64,000 nt of DNA from Candidatus Levyibacteriota bacterium (GTDB taxonomy: Bacteria; Patescibacteriota; Microgenomatia; Levybacterales; UBA12049), in NCBI GenBank assembly GCA_027334565.1, contig DAHWUP010000004.1:15138-79137 (forward strand). The letters run 5' to 3'. Both the position numbers and the translations under genes were made by a program. The notes under the pieces are model-generated. The model did no database searches and had not been told where the DNA came from. It saw only the letters and a list, made by a program, of their open reading frames with translations. Shown piece by piece: positions 2,666 through 29,700 of the stretch; position 1 is the first letter of the stretch; each line of letters starts with the position of its first letter.

Positions 2666-2668
2666 ATG

Positions 2669-3031
2669 TGGAGATGTCCGAGAATGACCCGGAGTCCAAG
2701 AATGCGTTTAAAAAAATCTACAAGCTTATTCTGCCTTTAAGAGTCGCCTTATTCTTTTCCGGTAGAAGGGAATAAATAAGACCAAGATTATAAATTCAAT
2801 AAGGACCCAATCAGATTCCTTATCAAGTTCCCGACTTTGTTTATGCTCAAAAAATCTCATCGGGAGAAGATTTGATGAACACCTCAAATTACTTAAGCGT
2901 ATGCGTAAGCAAATTGCGGGCTAAAACGTGAAGTTCTAGCATTTAATTTTTGATTCTTGTTTTACGGCTACTAATCAAAGCCGGCTTGCATTTTTTAAAG
3001 TGCTAAATCCTGTCGATGCAATTGCATCCCC
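2669..3031 (-). ncRNA. ssrA: tmRNA (SsrA)
   Basis: Minus-strand 5' end GGGGAUGCAAUUGCAUCGACAGGAUUU matches the tmRNA 5' consensus (GGGGcUG...GGAUUCGACGGGAUUU). 3' end is ..GGAC-UCCGG-GUCAUUC-UCGGA-CAUCUCC-A, giving a 7-bp acceptor with the G3-U70 Ala identity pair. Candidate tag ORF starts at resume codon GCU about 100 nt from the 5' end. The gene lies immediately downstream of smpB. Confidence 0.7.
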
Positions 3032-6344: not shown

Positions 6345-8152
6345 TATCTTTCTACATTATACAACGGTCCGACAATTTGTATATTCGATGGTGCTCTTAG
6401 GTTAAAGTAATTCTTAAAATCGTTTCCCGAAAAACTCACCGTTCCTGCGTCTCCCGAAACCGTGACGCCGGTGGTGTTGCCGGAACCGAAGTCAGCCGAA
6501 ACGGAGACGTTACTGACACTGTTAAACGGTGTTATGCCCCTCGACTGTAATTCCTGCTTGACCTGATCGGCGCTCCAGGTATCGGTGCCGGCCGGATTTG
6601 GTTTGTCGGTTTGATATAAATGGTTAACGGTTGAGGAATCTTTTTGCGCCAAAAGCAGCACGTTAACTATATCGGCGACATCGTCGGAGGTTAGCCAGGC
6701 AGTCCCGTTATATTGGCTTCTTGAGCCCCAGTCGCAATAAAACCAGGGGGAACTTTTATCATATGCATTATTTTGAATATCCGAAAAGCTGCCGGCAGAA
6801 CCCGACGTGGTGTCAACCGCGTCTTTGGTCCAAGAAGTTTGAGCCCAGCCGATATCGGCTGAAGTGTGGACATATCCGCCGTGTGTAGAGGAAAACCAGG
6901 CTTTAATCGGGGCACCGCCCTGGACCATCACCTGGCCGGAGGTATCGTTAACCGCTTGATCCCAGTTCCCTCCCTTGGGATTGGTCTGGAAAACCTGGCA
7001 ATATTGTGTTGCGCAAATAGACTCGGCACCGTTATTGGTTGCCGCCAGTACATATGAACGAACGGCGATTGCCTGGGCTTTTAGCGCTTCCGCCGGCCAG
7101 TTATCCGGAACCTCGTAAATTCTTTTTACGTAGTCTTCAAGACTTCCGGTCCAGATGACATTGCCTGTGTTAATTCCGTTTCCGTCGTTGACGCTTATGG
7201 TAGCGTTGAGGTTTTGGTAACTGTCGAAATTATAATATGCATGAAGGATTGTATCCGAACTTTGACCTGCCAAAGCTCTTCCGTAAGCACCGTACTGGTT
7301 TAGTCCAACCCGGTTGGGAACGCCATAGGTGAAAAAACCGAATTTGGGCGAGAAACCGGGATCTTTGCCGATATCGCTTGAACACCCGCCCTGTGTGTTA
7401 TAGGCAAAAAGAGGGATGTTAAGTCCCGAGAGTTTTGCCGCCAAGATGCTTTGCTGGATGGAGTTAAGCGAAGCAAGTTGATTGGATAGTGTTGCCTGGT
7501 AGGCTCTTGCTCCCGAGACAATTTTATCAAGCTGTGAAGACTGGGAGTCCAGATTGCTCTTTAAAGCCGTCAGGTTCGCCTCCTGCGCTTGGAGTTGTTT
7601 TTGTTTGTTTTGAAGATCCAAAATAGTCGCGGCTATGTTGGTGATGATCGCCTTATCCCTGTCGGCATTGGCCTTTTGGAATCCCAATATTTGGGTGAAC
7701 TGCGCAATCGAACCCGAAGAAAGCAGTAGTAAGAGCGGAGAATTATAATAAGATTTAATGTAATAATCTCTGACGGTTGCATTTAGGATTTCTGTTTGTG
7801 TGGCCATTTGTGCATAACCGGTGTTGATATCCTGTTGTTCCTGCGCCAAATTATTTTCGATTCCGGCAATTGTATTTTTTATTCCCTGGATTTGCGAATT
7901 TAAACTGTCAAGCTTAGACTGCAAGGGCGCGGTGGCGTTAAGTGAGGATTGCAGAGCCTGGTTAATCGACGACTCGCATTTACTGATCAGATCCTGGCAT
8001 GCGGAACCGAAACCGTTAGTGCCGCTGCAGGCATTTTGTACGTTGGAAATATCACAACTGGTGTCTTGAGCGTTTGAGGAAGGCATTAATATGACACTTC
8101 CTGCCAACAGTAAGATGAAAAAAAGCAAAAAAAGGGTCTTTTTCATGGCCAA
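6344..8152 (-). CDS. secreted coiled-coil protein with SpoIID/LytB-like domain (peptidoglycan remodelling)
   Basis: Signal peptide; long Q/N/S-rich coiled coil; C-terminal domain with ALKAQAIAVRSYVLA..GYVHTSADIGW resembling SpoIID/LytB. Confidence 0.45.
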   Translation of the reverse strand: MAMKKTLFLLFFILLLAGSVILMPSSNAQDTSCDISNVQNACSGTNGFGSACQDLISKCESSINQALQSSLNATAPLQSKLDSLNSQIQGIKNTIAGIENNLAQEQQDINTGYAQMATQTEILNATVRDYYIKSYYNSPLLLLLSSGSIAQFTQILGFQKANADRDKAIITNIAATILDLQNKQKQLQAQEANLTALKSNLDSQSSQLDKIVSGARAYQATLSNQLASLNSIQQSILAAKLSGLNIPLFAYNTQGGCSSDIGKDPGFSPKFGFFTYGVPNRVGLNQYGAYGRALAGQSSDTILHAYYNFDSYQNLNATISVNDGNGINTGNVIWTGSLEDYVKRIYEVPDNWPAEALKAQAIAVRSYVLAATNNGAESICATQYCQVFQTNPKGGNWDQAVNDTSGQVMVQGGAPIKAWFSSTHGGYVHTSADIGWAQTSWTKDAVDTTSGSAGSFSDIQNNAYDKSSPWFYCDWGSRSQYNGTAWLTSDDVADIVNVLLLAQKDSSTVNHLYQTDKPNPAGTDTWSADQVKQELQSRGITPFNSVSNVSVSADFGSGNTTGVTVSGDAGTVSFSGNDFKNYFNLRAPSNIQIVGPLYNVER

Positions 8153-11631: not shown

Positions 11632-13809
11632 TTAATGTCCGGGGATCGGTGTTGGAGTCGGAGTCGGGTGTGGGCAGGATAAGCAATATTCGTCACCGGT
11701 CGGGTCCGTGTAAACTGTCTCGCTTTTTAAACCGATATTATCGGTCTGTCCCTTCTTGGCTAAGTCTTGGGTGGCGTTATCGATCCAAACGTTGGTTGTT
11801 TCAACTTTTCCGTAATTTCTTTCGTCACCCTTGATGAAATATTCAAGTCTGGTCGGGCAATTATCCCCGGCTCCGGGTAGAAGTCCGGTATCCGAACAGA
11901 CCTTTTTTTGAACGATATCCGAAGGCCTGGTCAAGGGTTCGGGATCATTACCTTTTAACAGTCCCGACATGATGTCATTCCATATCGGCGCCGCACCGGT
12001 GATTCCTGAGGCAAGACCGCCCATCGGGGTATTGTCGTTGTTTCCTACCCACGCAGCAACCAGGAAGGAAGGCGTATATCCGATAGTCCAGTTGTCGCGG
12101 AAGTCGTTGGTGGTTCCGGTTTTCACCGATACTACCTGTCCGGGAATTTTAAGCTGCGAATTGTCCCCGAATTCCATCACCCGCGCGTTATTATCGGCCA
12201 AAATATCGGAGATTATAAAGGCTACTCCCTCAGGCAGGATTTTTGTCCCGAATATCGGGCTTGCCGGGGGGTCATATTTTTGCAAAACCCGTCCGTTCTT
12301 GTCGACCACTTTCAAAATCGGTTGGAGGTTAATCCGGTACCCTTCGTTGGCGAATATACCGTAAGCGGTGGCCATATCGGTCATTTTCACTTCGGCGCCT
12401 CCCAAGGTCAAAGAGAGCCCATATTCGTTGGGGTGTGTAAAAGTAGTGATCCCCATAGCCGATGCCGTCGCCACCATAGCGTCGACCCCGTTTAACTTAA
12501 GCATTTTCACCGCCGGTATGTTGACGGAGTTTCCCAAAGCGTAGCGCATTTGTACAATCCCGTGCCATTTCCCGTCGTAATTGACCGGACAATAATCTTT
12601 GCCTCCCTGGTTTGGAAAACAGATCGGCTCGTCGATAAAACCGGTTGAAGCGGAATATCCGTTCATCAGTCCGACCGCGTAATTGATCGGTTTGATTGAC
12701 GAACCGGGTTGCCTTAATGAGGTTGTGACGTTGACGTTTCCGTCGATTGCCGTATCGAAGTAGTCTTTACTTCCTACCATCGCCAGAATTTCTCCGGTAG
12801 CAGGGTCCGTCACCAATGCCGCCCCATTGGTAACGTGGTAATATTTCGGCAGCGCGTCGACTTCCTTGGTGACCGAATCCTGTGCCAGATTCTGGATATT
12901 CAAGTCAAGGGTGGTGGTTACTTTTAATCCTCCTTCTTCAACTTCTTTTTCTCCGTATTTGGAGATAAGCAGGTCCTTAACGTATAAAACGAAATGTGGG
13001 GCCAGGATCTGGTTGGCTAATCTTTTATATTTCAGTACTTCCTTTTCCGCCGCCTGTTCCTGGGATTTGGTAATATAATTCTGCTGGTACATCGCGTCAA
13101 GGACCTCAAGCTGCCTTTGTTTGGCAAGTTCCGGGTGGGCCCCGAAAGGCGAGTAAGCTGTCGGAGACTGGGGAAGACCGGCCAATAAAGCACTTTGTGC
13201 CAGATCCAAATCTTTGGCATGTATGCCGAAATACATCTCGGAAGCTGCCTCAACACCGTAGGCAGGACCGCCGTAGGGGGTTTGATTAAGGTACATATTT
13301 AGAATCTGGTTTTTCGAATAGATCATTTCCGTGGCAAACGCGAGAATTACCTCCTTGATTTTGCGGGTGATTGTTTGTTCCTGGTTTAGAAGACTGTTTT
13401 TTACCAGCTGCTGGGTGAGGGTCGAACCCCCTTCGAGCCTTTGGTGAAAAACGGTTGAGATAAAAGCCCTGATGATTCCCCTAATATCGATCGCACCGTG
13501 TTCATAAAAGTTTTTATCCTCAATCGCAATCGTTGACTCCTGCATGTATTTGGGGACTTGGGATAAGGGTATGAAAGTTTGGTTCTTTTTGTCATAAATA
13601 TTGTATAAAAGTTTTCCGTTACGGTCGTAAATAAGCGTAGACTGGGGAGCGGAGGTGCTGCTTAGCTTGGTCGGGAGGGGTAAATCTTTAAGGAAATATA
13701 CGCTGCCGGCAATAAATACTATTATTAATAATAAGAACAATTCCCGTTTTCGCCATTTTCTCGAGGTCAATTTCTTTAGAAGGTGTACCTTTTTCATGCC
13801 CAATATCAT
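11632..13809 (-). CDS. class A penicillin-binding protein (PBP1A-type), copy 2 (tandem paralog)
   Basis: Same GT51 and transpeptidase motif set (IAIEDKNFYEHGA, STLTQQL, SSIK, KTGTT); C-terminal PTPTPTP tail. Confidence 0.8.
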   Translation of the reverse strand: MILGMKKVHLLKKLTSRKWRKRELFLLLIIVFIAGSVYFLKDLPLPTKLSSTSAPQSTLIYDRNGKLLYNIYDKKNQTFIPLSQVPKYMQESTIAIEDKNFYEHGAIDIRGIIRAFISTVFHQRLEGGSTLTQQLVKNSLLNQEQTITRKIKEVILAFATEMIYSKNQILNMYLNQTPYGGPAYGVEAASEMYFGIHAKDLDLAQSALLAGLPQSPTAYSPFGAHPELAKQRQLEVLDAMYQQNYITKSQEQAAEKEVLKYKRLANQILAPHFVLYVKDLLISKYGEKEVEEGGLKVTTTLDLNIQNLAQDSVTKEVDALPKYYHVTNGAALVTDPATGEILAMVGSKDYFDTAIDGNVNVTTSLRQPGSSIKPINYAVGLMNGYSASTGFIDEPICFPNQGGKDYCPVNYDGKWHGIVQMRYALGNSVNIPAVKMLKLNGVDAMVATASAMGITTFTHPNEYGLSLTLGGAEVKMTDMATAYGIFANEGYRINLQPILKVVDKNGRVLQKYDPPASPIFGTKILPEGVAFIISDILADNNARVMEFGDNSQLKIPGQVVSVKTGTTNDFRDNWTIGYTPSFLVAAWVGNNDNTPMGGLASGITGAAPIWNDIMSGLLKGNDPEPLTRPSDIVQKKVCSDTGLLPGAGDNCPTRLEYFIKGDERNYGKVETTNVWIDNATQDLAKKGQTDNIGLKSETVYTDPTGDEYCLSCPHPTPTPTPIPGH

Positions 13810-19099: not shown

Positions 19100-19151
19100 T
19101 TGACACCATATGTCTAGTGTCCTATGATTTTTTTGGCGCTATATCTAGTGA
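19100..19151 (+). promoter_or_regulatory. sigma70-like promoter (TTGACA-N17-TATGAT) overlapped by two NrdR-box-like repeats
   Basis: TTGACA at 19100-19105 and TATGAT at 19123-19128. Two copies of TAT(G/A)TCTAGTG (19109-19120 and 19140-19151) are 31 bp apart, each about 12/16 to the NrdR box consensus acaCtAtATaTaGtgt. They lie upstream of nrdR-nrdJ. Confidence 0.45.
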
Positions 19152-19173
19152 TTTAAGGTCAAAAAGGTTTGTT

Positions 19174-19623
19174 ATGAAGTGTCCATATTGCGGAAACAAA
19201 GACACGGAAGTAGTAGAAACCCGGGACAGCGAAGATTTAGAAACAATCAGAAGAAGGCGCGAGTGTTTAAAGTGCGGGAAAAGATTTACTACTTACGAGC
19301 GGATAGAGAACGTTAACTTAATAGTTATTAAAAAAGACGGAAGGCGTGAACAATTCAACAGAGATAAATTAAGAGCAGGAATCCTAAGGAGTTGCGAAAA
19401 GACCAAAGTATCTCTTGAAGACATAGAAAAGATCCTAACGGAAATCGAGCGGGAATTAAGGAACGCCGATTCGGTGGAGGTCGAAAGCAAAAAGATCGGA
19501 CAACTGGTTTCTGCGAGGCTAAAAACACTGGATAAAGTAGCTTATATCAGGTTCTCAAGCGTCTTCAAAAGGTTTGTGGACGTTGAGGACTTTGAAAAAG
19601 AAGTTAAAAGACTAATTAAATAG
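19174..19623 (+). CDS. nrdR: transcriptional repressor NrdR
   Basis: MKCPYCG...CLKCGKRFTTYERIE zinc ribbon plus ATP-cone. Start taken at 19174, downstream of the promoter and NrdR boxes. Confidence 0.85.
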   Translation: MKCPYCGNKDTEVVETRDSEDLETIRRRRECLKCGKRFTTYERIENVNLIVIKKDGRREQFNRDKLRAGILRSCEKTKVSLEDIEKILTEIERELRNADSVEVESKKIGQLVSARLKTLDKVAYIRFSSVFKRFVDVEDFEKEVKRLIK

Positions 19624-19624
19624 T

Positions 19625-22054
19625 ATGAAATTGGACGGAATAAGGCAAAAGGTTTTTTTAGACAGATACAGCTTAAAAGACTCAAAAGGAAATCCCATGG
19701 AAAAAACTGCGGGTGAGATGTGGAGAAGGGTTGCCAGAGGAATCGCCAGCGTAGAAAAGCCCAAAGATCGTAAAAACTGGGAAAAGAAATTCTACGATGT
19801 GATGGAAGATTTTAAATTCTTACCCGGCGGAAGGATACTGGCCGGCGCAGGAACCGGCTTCGACGTTACTTATTATAATTGCTTCGTAATCCCCAATCCC
19901 CCCGACTCCAGAGGTGGAATAATGAATAACCTGACCCAGATGATCGAGATCATGGCTCACGGCGGCGGAGTCGGACTTAACCTTTCTTCTTTAAGACCCA
20001 GGGGAGCCAGGGTTAAAAAGGTCAATGGTTTTTCTTCCGGTCCCCTAAATTGGGCAGAACTTTATTCTCTGGCGACCAAAGACATAGTCCAGCAGGGAGG
20101 TTCAAGAAGGGGCGCTTTGATGCTAATGCTCCACGACTGGCACCCCGATATAGAAGAATTTATTACGGTAAAACAGGACCTTAGCAAAATTAACGGGGCC
20201 AACCTTTCGGTTTGCGTTTCCGACACTTTTATGAATGCCGTAAAACGCGACGAAGACTGGGATTTGGTTTTCCCCGACCTCAATGACAAAAGGTACGACA
20301 AGAAATGGAACGGAGATATTGACGAGTGGAAAAAACTGGGGGGAAAAACCGAAGTTAAAAAAACCGTTAAAGCACGATACCTTTGGGATTTGATTTGCAC
20401 CGCCGCTTGGAAATCGGCAGAACCGGGACTCCATTTCCTAGAAAGAAGTAACAAACGTTCAAACACCTGGTATTTTGAAAAATTGATTGCCACCAACCCC
20501 TGCGGAGAGCAGCCATTATCAGGCTGGGCGGTTTGCAATCTTGGTGCCATGAATCTGTCGGCGTATGTCAAAAACAGGAAATTTGATTATGTAAACTTTG
20601 CCAAAGACGTTCAAGTGGCGGTCAGGTTCCTGGATAACGTCATTGACGACACCCATTATTTCTATAAGGAAAATGAAAAGGTAGCCAAGGATATCAGAAG
20701 ACAAGGGTTGGGAATTATGGGTCTGGCGGATGCTTTGATTAAAATGGAAATCAAATATGGAAGCGATGAGTCGCTTAAGGTAATCGAGAAAATATTCAAA
20801 ACCTTAAGGGATAATGCCTATATTTCCTCTTCGGATATCGCGGCGGAAAAAGGATCGTTCCCCAAGTACAGCCAAGAAAAATACCTTAACGGCTGGTTTA
20901 TTAAAAGATTGCCGGAAGAGGTGAGGAAAAAAATCGCCAAACAGGGAATCAGAAACGCCGTGATTCTAACGATCGCTCCGACCGGTACGACCGGGCTCTT
21001 GGCGGGAGCTTCCTCGGGAATAGAACCGGTTTATGAATTCGAGTTTATCAGGCGTGACAGGCTTGGCGAACACCAAATGTACCATCCGCTTTTTGATGAA
21101 TGGAAAAAAGCTCATCCGAACGAACAAAAGCCAGACTATTTCGTTTCGGCAAACGACTTAACCCCCGAAAATCACGTCAAGGTTCAGGCGATCGCCCAAG
21201 AATATATTGATTCATCCATCTCCAAAACCGTCAACGCTCCTAAAACCCATACGGTTGAGGATGTCAAAAGACTATATGAAATGGCCCATGACATGGGTCT
21301 GAAGGGCATTACCTATATGCGCGACGGTTCAAGGGAGGGAGTACTGTCAAGAAAGGAAGATAAAAAAGAAGAACAAACAGTTATACCGCAAACCACGCTT
21401 CCGGTAATGCCGAGACCGGTAATGGTTGAGGGGGTTACTTATCAATCCGAAACCCCGGTCGGAAAAACCTTCATTACAATCAACCATAACGAGAACAACG
21501 AACCGTTCGAGGTATTTATTACCGTCGGAAAGTCGGGATCGGATGTTACCGCCATGGCGGATGCATTGGGTCGCATGATTTCGTTAAACTTAAGGCTTAA
21601 TGGCTCGCTTTCACCCAGAGAAAGAGTGAGGCAAATTGTCGCACAACTGATCGGTATCGGTGGGGCAAGGGCGGTTGGTTTTGGAGCGAACAAAGTGTTA
21701 TCGCTCCCGGACGCAGTTGCCAAAGTTTTGTCCAAGCACTTTGAGTTCAGGGTAAACGGAGTGGTCGAGGATAGGCCGAGAATCGTTAACACCGGTGGTA
21801 ACGGACATTCAAACGGCGCAACCACCGGGACCGTGGCCATAACCCACGCCCCGGTTCCAGCCGACCTGGACGCTCCGAATGAAGAAATAGTTAAAATCCA
21901 ACAATTGACGCTTCAAACGCCCCAAGGGACACTGTCTGCTACTGAAGGTACGGCAACGGGACTTTATGACATCTGCCCCGACTGTGGCGCGGCAAGCCTT
22001 GCATACGAAGAAGGCTGCAAAAAATGCTACTCCTGCGGTTATTCCGAGTGCTGA
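19625..22054 (+). CDS. nrdJ: class II (adenosylcobalamin-dependent) ribonucleotide reductase
   Basis: 809 aa. NPCGEQPL active-site motif and ATP-cone-less class II architecture. C-terminal CxxC..CxxC..C zinc ribbon. Confidence 0.85.
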   Translation: MKLDGIRQKVFLDRYSLKDSKGNPMEKTAGEMWRRVARGIASVEKPKDRKNWEKKFYDVMEDFKFLPGGRILAGAGTGFDVTYYNCFVIPNPPDSRGGIMNNLTQMIEIMAHGGGVGLNLSSLRPRGARVKKVNGFSSGPLNWAELYSLATKDIVQQGGSRRGALMLMLHDWHPDIEEFITVKQDLSKINGANLSVCVSDTFMNAVKRDEDWDLVFPDLNDKRYDKKWNGDIDEWKKLGGKTEVKKTVKARYLWDLICTAAWKSAEPGLHFLERSNKRSNTWYFEKLIATNPCGEQPLSGWAVCNLGAMNLSAYVKNRKFDYVNFAKDVQVAVRFLDNVIDDTHYFYKENEKVAKDIRRQGLGIMGLADALIKMEIKYGSDESLKVIEKIFKTLRDNAYISSSDIAAEKGSFPKYSQEKYLNGWFIKRLPEEVRKKIAKQGIRNAVILTIAPTGTTGLLAGASSGIEPVYEFEFIRRDRLGEHQMYHPLFDEWKKAHPNEQKPDYFVSANDLTPENHVKVQAIAQEYIDSSISKTVNAPKTHTVEDVKRLYEMAHDMGLKGITYMRDGSREGVLSRKEDKKEEQTVIPQTTLPVMPRPVMVEGVTYQSETPVGKTFITINHNENNEPFEVFITVGKSGSDVTAMADALGRMISLNLRLNGSLSPRERVRQIVAQLIGIGGARAVGFGANKVLSLPDAVAKVLSKHFEFRVNGVVEDRPRIVNTGGNGHSNGATTGTVAITHAPVPADLDAPNEEIVKIQQLTLQTPQGTLSATEGTATGLYDICPDCGAASLAYEEGCKKCYSCGYSEC

Positions 22055-22101: not shown

Positions 22102-22647
22102 ATGTCCATTTATACGAAATTTGGCGATAAAGGAAAGACAAGTTTATTTGCAGGAAGGGTCGTTTCCAAATCAAGCGTAAGGGTTAACACCTATGGGTCG
22201 CTGGACGAACTCAATAGTTATCTGGGGGTCATCTTATCCAAGATAAAAAACAAAAAGATTAGGCAAGAGTTAACACTGGTCCAAAACGATTTGTTTGAAA
22301 TAGGCGCATATCTTGCCAACCTTTCTTATAGCAAAGGACAGGCGCTTGATAAATATTTAGAAAAAAGGGTTTCGCAGTTTGAAAAAGAGATTGACACGTT
22401 AACGAACACAATGCCACCTCTTAAAAATTTCATTTTACCGGGAGGTTCCGAGACCGGCGCTAATTTGCATTTTTCCAGGACCTTAACCAGGAGGGCGGAA
22501 AGGCGCGTCGTCGAACTTTCGGAAAAAGAAAAAGTAAGCCCGAAGGTACTGATATACATGAACAGACTTTCGGACCTGCTTTTTACTTTTGCTAGATTTA
22601 TAAATAAAGAAAATAAAGTTAAAGAAATTATTTGGTCGTCACGATAG
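22102..22647 (+). CDS. ATP:cob(I)alamin adenosyltransferase, PduO/MMAB type
   Basis: MSIYTKFGDKGKTSL N-terminus and overall PduO-type pattern; 181 aa. Confidence 0.75.
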   Translation: MSIYTKFGDKGKTSLFAGRVVSKSSVRVNTYGSLDELNSYLGVILSKIKNKKIRQELTLVQNDLFEIGAYLANLSYSKGQALDKYLEKRVSQFEKEIDTLTNTMPPLKNFILPGGSETGANLHFSRTLTRRAERRVVELSEKEKVSPKVLIYMNRLSDLLFTFARFINKENKVKEIIWSSR

Positions 22648-22654
22648 AATAATT

Positions 22655-22779
22655 TCTTCGGGTGAAAGCCGGTGTAATCCCGGCGCTGTGCCGCAACTGT
22701 AAAGCCAGAGCCCCGTAAAAAATCTTCCGAGCAGAAGTATGTTTTTAATATACAACTCCTCGGAATTTGAGGAGTTTTT
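22655..22779 (+). promoter_or_regulatory. cobalamin-riboswitch-like leader with terminator/SD-sequestering expression platform
   Basis: GGGUGAAAGCC-GGUGUAAUCC-CGGCGCUGU-GCCGCAACUGUAA-AGCCAGAG matches the core of the cobalamin aptamer consensus (GGGAAnccGGUGnnAAnUCC..CnGnnCCCGCCACUGUaa..AGCCAG B12-box start). Downstream hairpin ACUCCUC-GGAAUUU-GAGGAGU plus U5 contains the SD (GAGGAG) 5 nt before the ATG at 22780. Confidence 0.45.
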
Positions 22780-23934
22780 ATGTATTTGGAAACATCAAGG
22801 CATTATGATTTTCAACAACCCGGGCATGAAACGCAGGGCTTACCCCGTTCGCCTCTTGCCTACGATCCGACCCTAGACTTTTCATATTATCATGCGCTTT
22901 CGGAAGGAAAACTCAATATAGGTAAGGATGACCTTGATGCATACATCAAGCGGCAATTGGTAACCAATTTAAGCGAAAGGTTTGATATGCCCCTAAGCGT
23001 TACCAACTATAAAATAAGAGACGGACAAATTTACGGAGAAAATACCGATTTGCCGTTTACGGAAATGATTAAGCGGGGAATAGACCACCGACAAAAATAC
23101 GGAAATCCCTTAGATTTCTCAAGAGAAGAAGCAGAGCTTACGGGATTTTTAAAAGTCCAGGCGGTATTGACAGACCCTAAAACTCCTTTGGGCACCGTAA
23201 TGATATCGGTTTCACCAAGAGGACAAGAGGGATCATCCTATCAACATAATTTTGTGGACGGGATGGAAGTAAAAGAGGATGAAACAGGCTCCAGGTTTAT
23301 TGAGTCAACCAGATACGGTTCGTCATTAACCTTGAGCGAATTTTCGGACAGGTTGAATCAACTAGGTGAAATGAACGCGTACGATGGAGCAAACGATGCT
23401 TATTTTCTTTCACACCCGTTACGGGTAAATGGAATTTCGAAACAACAAGTGCGCTCGTTATTTGCGAACGAAGACGGAAAAGTCACGGATGATGAATTTG
23501 ATTTTATCCTGCAGCAGTCGGCGCCTGTTTGGGAGCATTATCGCAAAACCATGGCCGATTTGGATCTTGAAAATGCACTACTTAGTTTTAACGCCGGCCT
23601 GAATATAGCGGATGAGGCGCTGAAAACTTATCGGGGGGGGAAAGGGACTGGTCTTAGAAGCGGTAACCTTAACGAAATAATTGATGTCTATGGCAGGATC
23701 CCGGTTAGACAGGTAATGGTAGGGTGCGGTTCTTCTTCGGGATTTGATATTCCAAACGGTCCGGTAAATGCGTTAAGGCAAAATTCGCCCTTCAGCGTTT
23801 CGGAATTTGGTAAATTAACCGATCGATATGGGGAAAGGTCGTTTGATTGTCCGCATTGTGGTTGGAAAAATTCCCGCCCCGAAAACCAGCTGGTTGAAAA
23901 ATGTAGCCATTGCGGCGGAAGCGTCAGATGCTGA
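22780..23934 (+). CDS. hypothetical soluble protein with C-terminal CxxC..CxxC zinc ribbon (riboswitch-associated)
   Basis: 384 aa; no TM segment; CPHCGWKNSRPENQLVEKCSHCGG at the C-terminus; no recognisable catalytic motif. Confidence 0.45.
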   Translation: MYLETSRHYDFQQPGHETQGLPRSPLAYDPTLDFSYYHALSEGKLNIGKDDLDAYIKRQLVTNLSERFDMPLSVTNYKIRDGQIYGENTDLPFTEMIKRGIDHRQKYGNPLDFSREEAELTGFLKVQAVLTDPKTPLGTVMISVSPRGQEGSSYQHNFVDGMEVKEDETGSRFIESTRYGSSLTLSEFSDRLNQLGEMNAYDGANDAYFLSHPLRVNGISKQQVRSLFANEDGKVTDDEFDFILQQSAPVWEHYRKTMADLDLENALLSFNAGLNIADEALKTYRGGKGTGLRSGNLNEIIDVYGRIPVRQVMVGCGSSSGFDIPNGPVNALRQNSPFSVSEFGKLTDRYGERSFDCPHCGWKNSRPENQLVEKCSHCGGSVRC

Positions 23935-23991
23935 CCGGTGATGTTTTGAAGGTGAATTTTAATTGTCCTTTAAGTGTAATAATGGTATCAT

Positions 23992-24507
23992 ATGCGTATG
24001 GATAACACTGCCCAGACCAATCAATCGAATATTCAGGAAAGTTCTAATATTCAACCGAGCCAGTCTTCCAAGACCCAGCAGCCGGTGCCACAGCAACCGG
24101 CTACGCCTGTTGCATCTTCCAACAAAGAATTGGAAAAAAGCAGCGCATTTTCGGAAATAGTCAAACCTTCGGAGGAGGAAGTAAAGGTTGAGGAGGAATT
24201 GAAAAATGTCGGCGTTGTTGTTAATTCCGATAAACCGAAGCTGGATAAGGTTCATGAGCAAATCGGGGTTAAGGCCTCCGCCGAAAGCGTTTCGGTTAGC
24301 ACGTCTCCCCCGGCGAATATTACATTGCCTTTAAGCGAAGAGGAAGCGGACAGTGTCTTGAAAACCAAACAATCAAAATTCCATCTGCAGGAAAACGTGG
24401 GCGAGTTTGCGGGAGAATATACCGAGGACTCACTCCCTTTTTTGGCTGCGCTGGTTGTAAAAGTATTCAAGGAAATGCATAAGAAAATATTCAGAAGAAA
24501 AAAATAA
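23992..24507 (+). CDS. hypothetical low-complexity (Q/S/E-rich) protein with C-terminal amphipathic/basic segment
   Basis: 171 aa; ends 2 nt before the start of the downstream ATPase gene, suggesting translational coupling. Confidence 0.35.
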   Translation: MRMDNTAQTNQSNIQESSNIQPSQSSKTQQPVPQQPATPVASSNKELEKSSAFSEIVKPSEEEVKVEEELKNVGVVVNSDKPKLDKVHEQIGVKASAESVSVSTSPPANITLPLSEEEADSVLKTKQSKFHLQENVGEFAGEYTEDSLPFLAALVVKVFKEMHKKIFRRKK

Positions 24508-29288: not shown

Positions 29289-29469
29289 ATGAACGAACAG
29301 TAATATTAGTTAATATTTATATTATAACGTCGGTTTGTTTAATTTGTCAAAGCTGTTTTCATTGCTTATTGTTCTTAATTTTGTTAAAATATCAATACAC
29401 GCGGGGTAGTGTACAGTGCACATGAGGCTTAATAATGGGCCGTTTTAATAGTAATATTAGAATAGAATC

Positions 29470-29700
29470 TGGCTATATCGGTGAACCCCTAGCGTTTAGG
29501 GTAACACCGAGGGAAGTCGAAATCTAAAATTGAGATCCCGTAGAGACTACACGCCAGACATCCTGAGTTTATCTAAGGATGATGATATAGTCCGACACTC
29601 TAGGTAACTGGAGAAACAGGAGGCATAATCTCATAGGCTAGGCGCAACTCCTAGCCCCGCAACATCGAAAATTTAGCCTCAGATTTGACATTTTTCTTCG
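29470..29700 (+). ncRNA. group I intron-like ribozyme core (approximate boundaries)
   Basis: R element UAGAGACUACA (29541-29551) and S element GAUAUAGUCC (29584-29593), nearly identical to the group I consensus (..CAGAGACUACA / AAGAUAUAGUCC) and to Tetrahymena (GAUAUAGUCGGAC). P8-like hairpin CAUCCU..AGGAUG between them. GGGAAG / UCCCG P4-like pairing upstream. P9-like hairpin GGCUAGG-CGCAACU-CCUAGCC downstream. Confidence 0.5.

Follow-up and report, generated by a model that had tools for sequence, protein, structure and literature searches.

A predicted class-II cobalamin riboswitch between pduO and the gene of a 384-residue protein in a Candidatus Levyibacteriota contig

We describe a putative cobalamin (B12) riboswitch in a 64,000-nucleotide (nt) stretch of contig DAHWUP010000004.1 from a Candidatus Levyibacteriota bacterium, hereafter the window. 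The element lies between pduO, which encodes a PduO-type cob(I)alamin adenosyltransferase, and an open reading frame (ORF) for a 384-amino-acid (aa) protein, here called ORF384. The RNA at 22646-22721 is, as read from its sequence, a new member of a known riboswitch class, the class-II cobalamin riboswitches. We predict, with a probability of about 0.8, that 22646-22779 is a functional riboswitch of this class that represses the ORF at 22780-23934 when cobalamin is plentiful. The features of the element and its target are as follows, with paired helices and loops denoted P and L, and with SD for the Shine-Dalgarno sequence.

22646..22721 (+): class-II cobalamin (adenosylcobalamin, AdoCbl-II) aptamer, predicted from RF01689, the clade-specific model R1 and covariation
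22659-62 with 22712-15 (+): P3, aptamer helix
22668-72 with 22680-84 (+): P4, with the T-loop-like loop L4 UGUAAUC at 22673-79
22687-89 with 22693-95 (+): P5, with loop L5 UGCCG at 22689-93
22697-99 with 22706-08 (+): P6, aptamer helix
22724..22737 (+): hairpin P13, CUUC-CGAGCA-GAAG, starting 7 nt past P1, its position and loop kept clade-wide
22728-33 (+): loop L13, CGAGCA, presumed kissing partner of L5
22725..22731 (+): 5' arm of the anti-sequestor helix, UUCCGAG (5' strand of P13 and part of L13), predicted to pair with 22759-65
22759-65 (+): 3' arm of the anti-sequestor helix, CUCGGAA (end of the anti-SD strand and loop), predicted to pair with 22725-31
22755..22775 (+): SD-sequestering, terminator-like hairpin ACUCCUC-GGAAUUU-GAGGAGU (terminator-like site 22754-22776)
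22769-74 (+): SD GAGGAG, inside the 3' strand of this hairpin and 5 nt before the ATG
22775..22782 (+): U-run (22775-79), then the ATG (22780-82) of the regulated gene, read from the sequence; the layout recurs in relatives
22780..23934 (+): regulated gene, encoding the 384-aa protein of an unannotated family (translation, alignment and AlphaFold model)

The covariance models of Rfam 15 were run over the whole window at the gathering threshold, and the local region was rescored separately. AdoCbl-II (RF01689) matched over its full length (model positions 1-81 of 81) at 22646-22721 (+) with 38.6 bits against a gathering score of 36.5, corresponding to E-values of 1.3e-5 for the whole window and 7.9e-8 for the local region. 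No other cobalamin-clan match reached the gathering threshold anywhere in the window. The initial annotation had recognised the element by a conserved cobalamin-aptamer stretch, which is present at 22660-22708, and had named RF01689 as a model to run. Both its identification and its choice of model held, whereas the start had to be moved about 9 nt upstream, to 22646, where the aptamer overlaps the pduO stop codon (22645-47). The shortness it had remarked on is that of a class-II type aptamer: P6 consists of a 3-bp stem and a 6-nt loop, and both the P2 arm and the large P6 extension (P7-P11) of class I are absent. In some Curtissbacteria-type relatives P6 is enlarged by about 80 nt of inserted sequence, and class-I models score these higher.

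Loci related through the 384-aa protein were collected, 12 of them via exact-protein look-ups and, with an 8-sequence alignment of relatives, 30 from GTDB species genomes and 50 from metagenomes. RF01689 matches at or above the gathering score were found in many of them (38-57 bits), and the clade-specific covariance model R1 gives 73.1 bits at 22640-22729 in the window. Sixteen non-identical aptamers from related loci were aligned for covariation analysis and a consensus was calculated with RNAalifold. Compensatory double changes occur in 16 of the 21 pairs, and all four helices (P3-P6) co-vary. Paired cells amount to 89.9% in this alignment, compared with 36-46% when the partners are slid, and 88 compensatory cells are observed against 29.8 ± 3.8 after shuffling (none of 500 shuffles reaches the observed number). 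The columns of the core GCCGCAACUG and of the B12-box-like strand are invariant in 16/16 sequences. Because the covariation exceeds both the slid and the shuffled controls, we regard the aptamer as a structured, selected RNA and not as a chance match.

The expression platform is conserved as well. After P1 come a linker of about 7 nt, the hairpin with the CGAGCA loop, a variable spacer hairpin, the SD hairpin, a U5-U8 run and the AUG; the window and all other aptamers inspected in the clade, proximal or distal (more than 25), have this order. In the window, the terminator-like site at 22754-22776 reads AACTCCTCGGAATTTGAGGAGTT, then TTTATG. Alignment to relatives places a UCGAG loop motif also in the 3' hairpin of Rfam RF01482. 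The published class-II layout likewise has P13 about 7 nt downstream of P1, and requires an unpaired purine in the kissing contact of its loop with L5 (PMC5028336).

Two interactions figure in the proposed mechanism. The first is the anti-sequestor helix, in which 88.9% of cells are paired over 27 distinct platforms against at most 53% in slid controls, a statistic that is somewhat inflated since the 3' arm was picked by best pairing. It contains 13 compensatory cells, for example UUUUCGAG/CUCGAAAA and UCCCGAG/CUCGGGA, a number reached in 0/500 shuffles. The second is a kissing loop between the invariant L5 UGCCG and L13 CG(A)GCA, for which 5 bp and one bulged A are possible (-4.3 kcal/mol). 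Since the two loops hardly vary, covariation is uninformative here apart from one possible compensatory change in related locus L016; we infer the kissing loop from analogy, from conservation and from this single change. Judged by these alignments, the anti-sequestor pairing is the better supported of the two. The ON and OFF folds are close in energy: for the leader up to the AUG the anti-sequestor (ON) fold is the minimum-free-energy structure, at -15.4 kcal/mol compared with -11.9 for P13 plus the hairpin, and with 15 nt of coding sequence added the OFF fold has -21.8 and the best ON fold -19.5.

According to the mechanism that we propose, UUCCGAG (22725-31) would pair with CUCGGAA (22759-65) in the absence of B12, which would keep the SD free, block the terminator-like hairpin and leave the gene ON. 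When B12 is bound, the L5-L13 kissing loop would lock P13, and the anti-SD strand, once released, would pair with the SD. The SD/terminator hairpin so formed would end transcription at the U-run and/or block translation initiation, and the gene would be OFF. The element is read as an OFF switch because the co-varying alternative helix (22725-31/22759-65) would free the SD without B12. The initial annotation had likewise proposed an OFF switch in which a hairpin plus U-run hides the SD of the next gene, and the position of GAGGAG within the hairpin is consistent with it; the P13/L13 hairpin and the co-varying anti-sequestor helix are additions to that description of the platform.

Besides the inflation of the pairing statistic, three observations weigh against the riboswitch reading. 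The RF01689 score of the window copy is just 2 bits over the threshold, the four outermost P1 pairs of this copy are non-canonical in the Rfam alignment, and the complementarity of L5 and L13 is not above chance, as 1226 of 2000 shuffled loops are at least as stable.

The ligand is probably AdoCbl, the product of PduO and the cofactor of the ribonucleotide reductase NrdJ encoded upstream, because the P1/P3 stem without a bulged T-loop in the junction between these helices (J1/3) resembles that of the Cbl-IIb subtype. In Cbl-IIa switches, which are selective for hydroxocobalamin (HyCbl) or methylcobalamin (MeCbl), J1/3 bulges out as a T-loop and touches the binding pocket; in the AdoCbl-binding Cbl-IIb switches it is short and either mismatched or paired, and P6 is a small hairpin or loop (PMC7367189). 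In the clade consensus of the 16-aptamer alignment, P1 and P3 form one uninterrupted stem of about 10 bp, and the 5-nt bulge of a J1/3 T-loop, as in Cbl-IIa, is missing. This bulge was not found in the window copy either, where the stem contains two mismatches; the Rfam alignment gives a 7-nt J1/3 solely at the cost of four non-canonical outer pairs. Together with the short P6 hairpin seen in several relatives, these features appear to resemble Cbl-IIb more than Cbl-IIa. AdoCbl as ligand also makes biological sense, because the sole B12 enzyme seen here, NrdJ, uses AdoCbl. Sensing of hydroxo- or methylcobalamin in the manner of Cbl-IIa is unlikely, though far from negligible: RF01689 was built around the env8-type, HyCbl-selective class and the P6 of the window, a mere short loop, is Cbl-IIa-like, whereas the clade-wide stem and the P6 hairpins of the relatives match the published description of Cbl-IIb. 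The ligand subtype is in any case not reliably readable from sequence, and for the selectivity of Cbl-IIb no structure or sequence rule exists (PMC7367189).

The association of the gene family with the aptamer was tallied by running R1 over all loci and combining the matches with tblastn gene maps, which left about 76 unique loci, 68 of them with usable upstream sequence. A same-strand cobalamin aptamer is present in 64 of these 68 (about 94%), in the following arrangements (R1 tally, n = 68).

28 loci (same strand): aptamer directly upstream of the ORF only
26 loci (same strand): aptamer upstream of a pduO-ORF or DUF4430-DUF6580-pduO-ORF operon only
10 loci (same strand): aptamer at both positions
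4 loci: no aptamer by R1; two have sub-threshold Rfam cobalamin matches directly upstream and two are limited by contig ends

The adenosyltransferase gene is the immediate upstream neighbour of the ORF384 homolog in 56/76 loci. Where the family is most diverged (branches at about 24% identity), the pduO stop and the start of the called ORF overlap, and an aptamer is located between nrdJ and pduO. Loci of the Curtissbacteria type, without a nearby pduO, have cobalamin-clan aptamer candidates directly upstream of the gene, four with near-threshold scores (L035, 36.1 bits; L030, 29.9; L024, 33.1; L033, 29.8) and one with 53.6 bits (L040). The ten loci with an aptamer at both positions (L018, L021, L025, L032, L034, L055, L072, L087, L088 and L090) contain two serial cobalamin riboswitches within a single gene string, both complete: the first precedes pduO or DUF4430-DUF6580-pduO, the second lies between the pduO stop and the ORF384 homolog, and the P13/SD-hairpin platform is the same in the two.

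In some genomes, genes with DUF4430 and DUF6580 domains lie inside the riboswitch-controlled operon (L005 4604-5158, L007 4374-5457), which the DUF4430 gene opens. DUF4430 is the C-terminal domain type of transcobalamins (PMC4350170), because of which the longer operons look like a binder, a membrane protein and an adenosyltransferase followed by the ORF384 homolog. Locus L005 has a further adenosyltransferase gene, of the CobA/BtuR type, at 7146-8120 (-); it is convergent to the ORF384 homolog, and its 324-aa product is extended at the N terminus by about 125 aa. The CobA/BtuR-type, DUF4430 and DUF6580 genes of the relatives have no tblastn match in the window. Sequence searches found no PDB relatives of the co-operonic DUF6580 and DUF4430 proteins, and a literature search found nothing on DUF6580.

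The gene neighbourhood in the window is as follows.

19117-19623: NrdR (TIGR00244, above curated cutoff)
19625..22054 (+): nrdJ, AdoCbl-dependent class II ribonucleotide reductase (TIGR02504 NrdJ_Z, 587.9 bits against a cutoff of 400; Pfam Ribonuc_red_lgC, lgN and TSCPD)
22102..22647 (+): PduO-type cob(I)alamin adenosyltransferase (TIGR00636, 195.6 bits against 108; Pfam Cob_adeno_trans, E = 3e-57)
23963-23991 (+): sigma-70-like promoter motif TTGTCC, 17 nt, TG-n-TATCAT, immediately before the ATG of ORF171
23992-24507 (+): ORF171, a 171-aa low-complexity protein with a hydrophobic C-terminal segment
24509-26881 (+): VirD4/TraD-like coupling ATPase, 3' of ORF171 (Pfam DUF8128 in relatives)

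The B12-centred context that the initial annotation had described is borne out by the NrdJ and PduO-type matches, both above curated cutoffs. Proximal aptamers of the clade begin about 5-40 nt from the pduO stop, and no conserved promoter was found before them. Because the aptamer in the window abuts the pduO stop and no conserved promoter precedes it, it is most likely an intercistronic attenuator acting on nrdR-nrdJ-pduO read-through transcripts and not a classical 5' leader. Attenuation at this point would allow the last gene to be regulated apart from the reductase and the adenosyltransferase, which are needed constitutively. A promoter of the riboswitch's own inside the 3' end of pduO was considered and rejected, as just weak, non-conserved sigma-70-like matches occur there.

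The motif before ORF171 (TTGTCC/G, 17 nt, TG-n-TATCAT/TATTAT) is kept in sequence and position in L001, L003 and L012, which suggests that ORF171 and the VirD4-like gene probably have their own promoter. Because this conserved promoter-like motif precedes ORF171, we consider ORF384 the main target of the switch. Since the -10 element of the motif ends at the start codon, the ORF171/VirD4-like mRNA may lack a leader, or the second ATG (23998) may be where it starts. Synteny among Levybacteria-type loci extends over the ORF171-VirD4-like pair and, after it, tRNA-Ile(UAU) and a convergent XerC-like recombinase.

The 384-aa protein has no relatives in Pfam, NCBIfam or PDB sequences beyond a generic Zn ribbon, and no signal peptide or membrane segment was predicted on inspection by eye; the initial annotation's picture of a cytosolic Zn-ribbon protein outside known families is thus retained. 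Its conserved motifs are E66-R67, R115-E116-x-A-E119, S145-P-x-G148 and Y154-x-x-N157-F-x-D160, and in the C-terminal part TGC316-G-SSGG, SPFSVSEFG (337-345) and a Cys4 ribbon (357-378). The residues E66, R67, R115, E116, A118, E119, G122, S145, G148, Y154, F158, L210, P213, G305, C316 and G317 are invariant. In a confident AlphaFold model based on 19 homologs (pLDDT 81.8, pTM 0.72), residues from about 50 to 180 form a PAS-like alpha/beta domain and those from about 185 to 305 a helical one; these are accompanied by a beta-hairpin with the invariant C316 in TGCGSSGG and by the Cys4 ribbon, and the SPFSVSEFG linker is modelled with low confidence yet is highly conserved. On the secondary-structure map of the model, the majority of the invariant residues fall in the PAS-like segment, which suggests that a ligand or active site may be located in this domain.

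An exhaustive profile search places the family at no fewer than 684 clusters at 50% identity, of similar length (>= 684; 329 with E below 1e-30). All members that were traced to named genomes come from metagenome-assembled genomes (MAGs) of Patescibacteria (Levybacteria, Curtissbacteria and Patescibacteria group). Ten loci (L016, L018, L020, L021, L025, L026, L035, L037, L038 and L042) are from TPA MAGs labelled 'uncultured Gammaproteobacteria bacterium' that have a typically Patescibacteria gene string, and the label is probably an error. A mobile-element origin of the family was rejected, as tblastn gave no match in PLSDB plasmids or INPHARED phages, and so were domain fusions, the ten longest members containing no extra Pfam domain.

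Some gene calls of the family are longer. The 463-aa call P0016 of L007/L008 starts 5 nt past pduO and reads through the putative leader, as do the long members P0063-P0145; their N-terminal extensions of 80-130 aa contain no Pfam domain and probably reflect mis-called starts. R1 detected no proximal aptamer in the pduO-ORF stretch of L007. At L012 5957-5992, and identically in L013, an AUG after the platform opens an 11-codon ORF (MVQHSNRKNNN), and the ORF384 homolog starts 44 nt further on with a weak SD of its own; this may be either an arrangement of the upstream-ORF type or the remnant of a start-site shift.

The initial annotation had suggested an unrecognised B12-related function for the protein, and the aptamer-gene link in about 94% of the sampled loci greatly strengthens this suggestion without naming which function. 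A role in obtaining or preparing cobalamin for adenosylation is proposed because of the predicted B12 repression, the near-universal riboswitch linkage and the tight pairing with PduO. From this context, it is an even call whether the protein helps to provide PduO and NrdJ with usable cobalamin, possibly by processing or reducing imported cobalamin or by handing it over to PduO. Window-type genomes have pduO without riboswitch control and ORF384 under it. Because pduO escaped control in these genomes while the ORF did not, and because ten genomes have two serial switches, the arrangement suggests that cells require the protein solely at times when they have to acquire fresh cobalamin, and not for routine re-adenosylation.

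More tentatively, and at somewhat less than even odds, the protein might found a new cobalamin-processing or escort family, a non-homologous counterpart of CblC/CblD or PduS. It would remove the upper ligand of imported cobalamin and/or reduce the cobalt and hand the product over to PduO so that the cell's only ribonucleotide reductase works, and would be ON only when AdoCbl is low, in some genomes under two serial riboswitches. The model and alignment offer a PAS-like pocket with invariant polar residues, an invariant Cys and a Cys4 knuckle. These functional proposals are drawn purely from context, several loci have the ORF384 homolog beside genes resembling those of type IV secretion systems (T4SS) and not beside pduO, and the protein has no sequence or fold homology to PduS, the CobA/PduO/EutT transferases, MMACHC/MMADHC, BtuM/CbrT or the B12-binding Rossmann domain, all of which counts on the other side.

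The T4SS-like neighbours lead to a rival for the function, in which the riboswitch is real and the protein belongs to a B12-starvation response or bypass, for example T4SS/VirD4-like import of host DNA or deoxynucleotides when NrdJ cannot work. B12-OFF control would suit a bypass as well as acquisition. A VirD4-like ATPase is encoded downstream in 27/76 loci, the gene sits among T4SS-like genes in loci without pduO (with a VirB2/TrbC pilin in L040 and a TraG-like gene in L009), and a terminator search of the window found none between ORF384 and ORF171. We nevertheless consider a bypass improbable, as the constant partners of the gene are the riboswitch and pduO and not VirD4, which is absent in L016, L018, L026, L032 and L043 and is separated from the ORF in L005 by a gene on the opposite strand. 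The promoter-like motif of ORF171 and VirD4 and the absence of the family from annotated plasmids and phages point the same way, and the overlap of pduO stop and ORF start in the distant branches suggests a joint function with PduO.

As for the RNA, a decayed relic aptamer followed by a plain intrinsic terminator of the nrdR-nrdJ-pduO operon would suit the marginal Rfam score and weak outer P1 of the window copy and a hairpin that fits the generic terminator pattern (such patterns being no commoner in the region than expected by chance), but it is hardly credible given an aptamer core kept with compensatory changes across loci whose proteins are just 30-40% identical, the conserved P13 and anti-sequestor logic, and a U-run that directly precedes the start codon of a conserved gene whose SD sits within the hairpin.

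The predicted functional riboswitch shares with the known class-II switches (RF01689 AdoCbl-II, formerly AdoCbl-variant; env8HyCbl, PDB 4FRN) the short four-way-junction aptamer without P7-P11, the GCCGCAACUG core, the linker of about 7 nt to P13, a loop that would be placed to kiss L5, and, as predicted, OFF control via ribosome access. In env8 the ribosome-binding site lies within L13, whereas in the window L13/P13 would act as an anti-anti-SD that competes with the SD for the anti-SD strand in a second, terminator-like hairpin. The J1/3 is a bulged T-loop in the env8 type and paired or mismatched (IIb-like) in the window, and the window switch further differs from env8 in its Patescibacteria (candidate phyla radiation, CPR) host and its intercistronic position. 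Terminator-type switches of Firmicutes (RF01482/RF00174, e.g. the B. subtilis btuF and yvrC leaders) have in common with it a UCGAG-type P13/L13 followed by mutually exclusive antiterminator and terminator helices, but their aptamers are class I or hybrid with P2 and/or a long P6, whereas the window has the minimal class-II core.

Tandem or intercistronic riboswitches are exemplified by tandem thiamine pyrophosphate (TPP) or glycine elements and by the intergenic AdoCbl element of the Enterococcus faecalis eut locus. In contrast to these, the ten related loci with two complete cobalamin switches per gene string (before the operon and before the last gene) have the same ligand class and platform in both copies, with the internal one abutting the preceding stop codon; the window keeps the internal one only. 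The internal switch would serve as a graded, gene-specific attenuator. Compared with MMACHC/CblC, MMADHC/CblD and the bacterial PduS, the 384-aa protein is alike only in its pathway position, its gene presumably sharing transcript and control with one for a PduO-type transferase, joined in some genomes by genes for a transcobalamin-domain binder and a membrane protein, and in having an invariant Cys and a Cys4 knuckle; sequence and fold are dissimilar, and the functional parallel is speculation.

There is nothing unusual in the RNA itself: it is a predicted class-II cobalamin riboswitch, and its platform, which combines a putative kissing loop with a terminator-type hairpin, follows a logic already known. 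Riboswitch linkage is among the most reliable guides to the function of unknown genes. With its size, its linkage to the aptamer and the presence of pduO in about three quarters of loci, the family is a strong candidate for a missing B12-salvage step in ultra-small, host-dependent bacteria, whose DNA synthesis appears to depend on an AdoCbl-requiring reductase. Graded, gene-specific attenuation could be studied in the natural variants of operon wiring, in which a switch precedes the entire uptake-pduO-ORF operon, its last gene alone, or each of the two. A literature search, limited to the library that was searchable, found no report on cobalamin riboswitches in CPR/Patescibacteria. This work documents predicted class-II cobalamin switches in Patescibacteria.

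Two other RNA features were noted in the window. A group I intron (Rfam, 29420-29614, 95 bits) interrupts a tRNA gene (29400-29669, +) that ARAGORN does not call on the raw sequence; excising 29430-29623, which ends on G, yields a clean tRNA with anticodon CAU, and L001 has a group I intron at the equivalent place (12258-12450). A tmRNA gene (100.5 bits) lies at 2666-3031 (-) with two tRNA-Ser genes nearby (242-329 and 961-1046), whereas in L016, L018, L026 and L032 the tmRNA is located just downstream of the ORF384 homolog.

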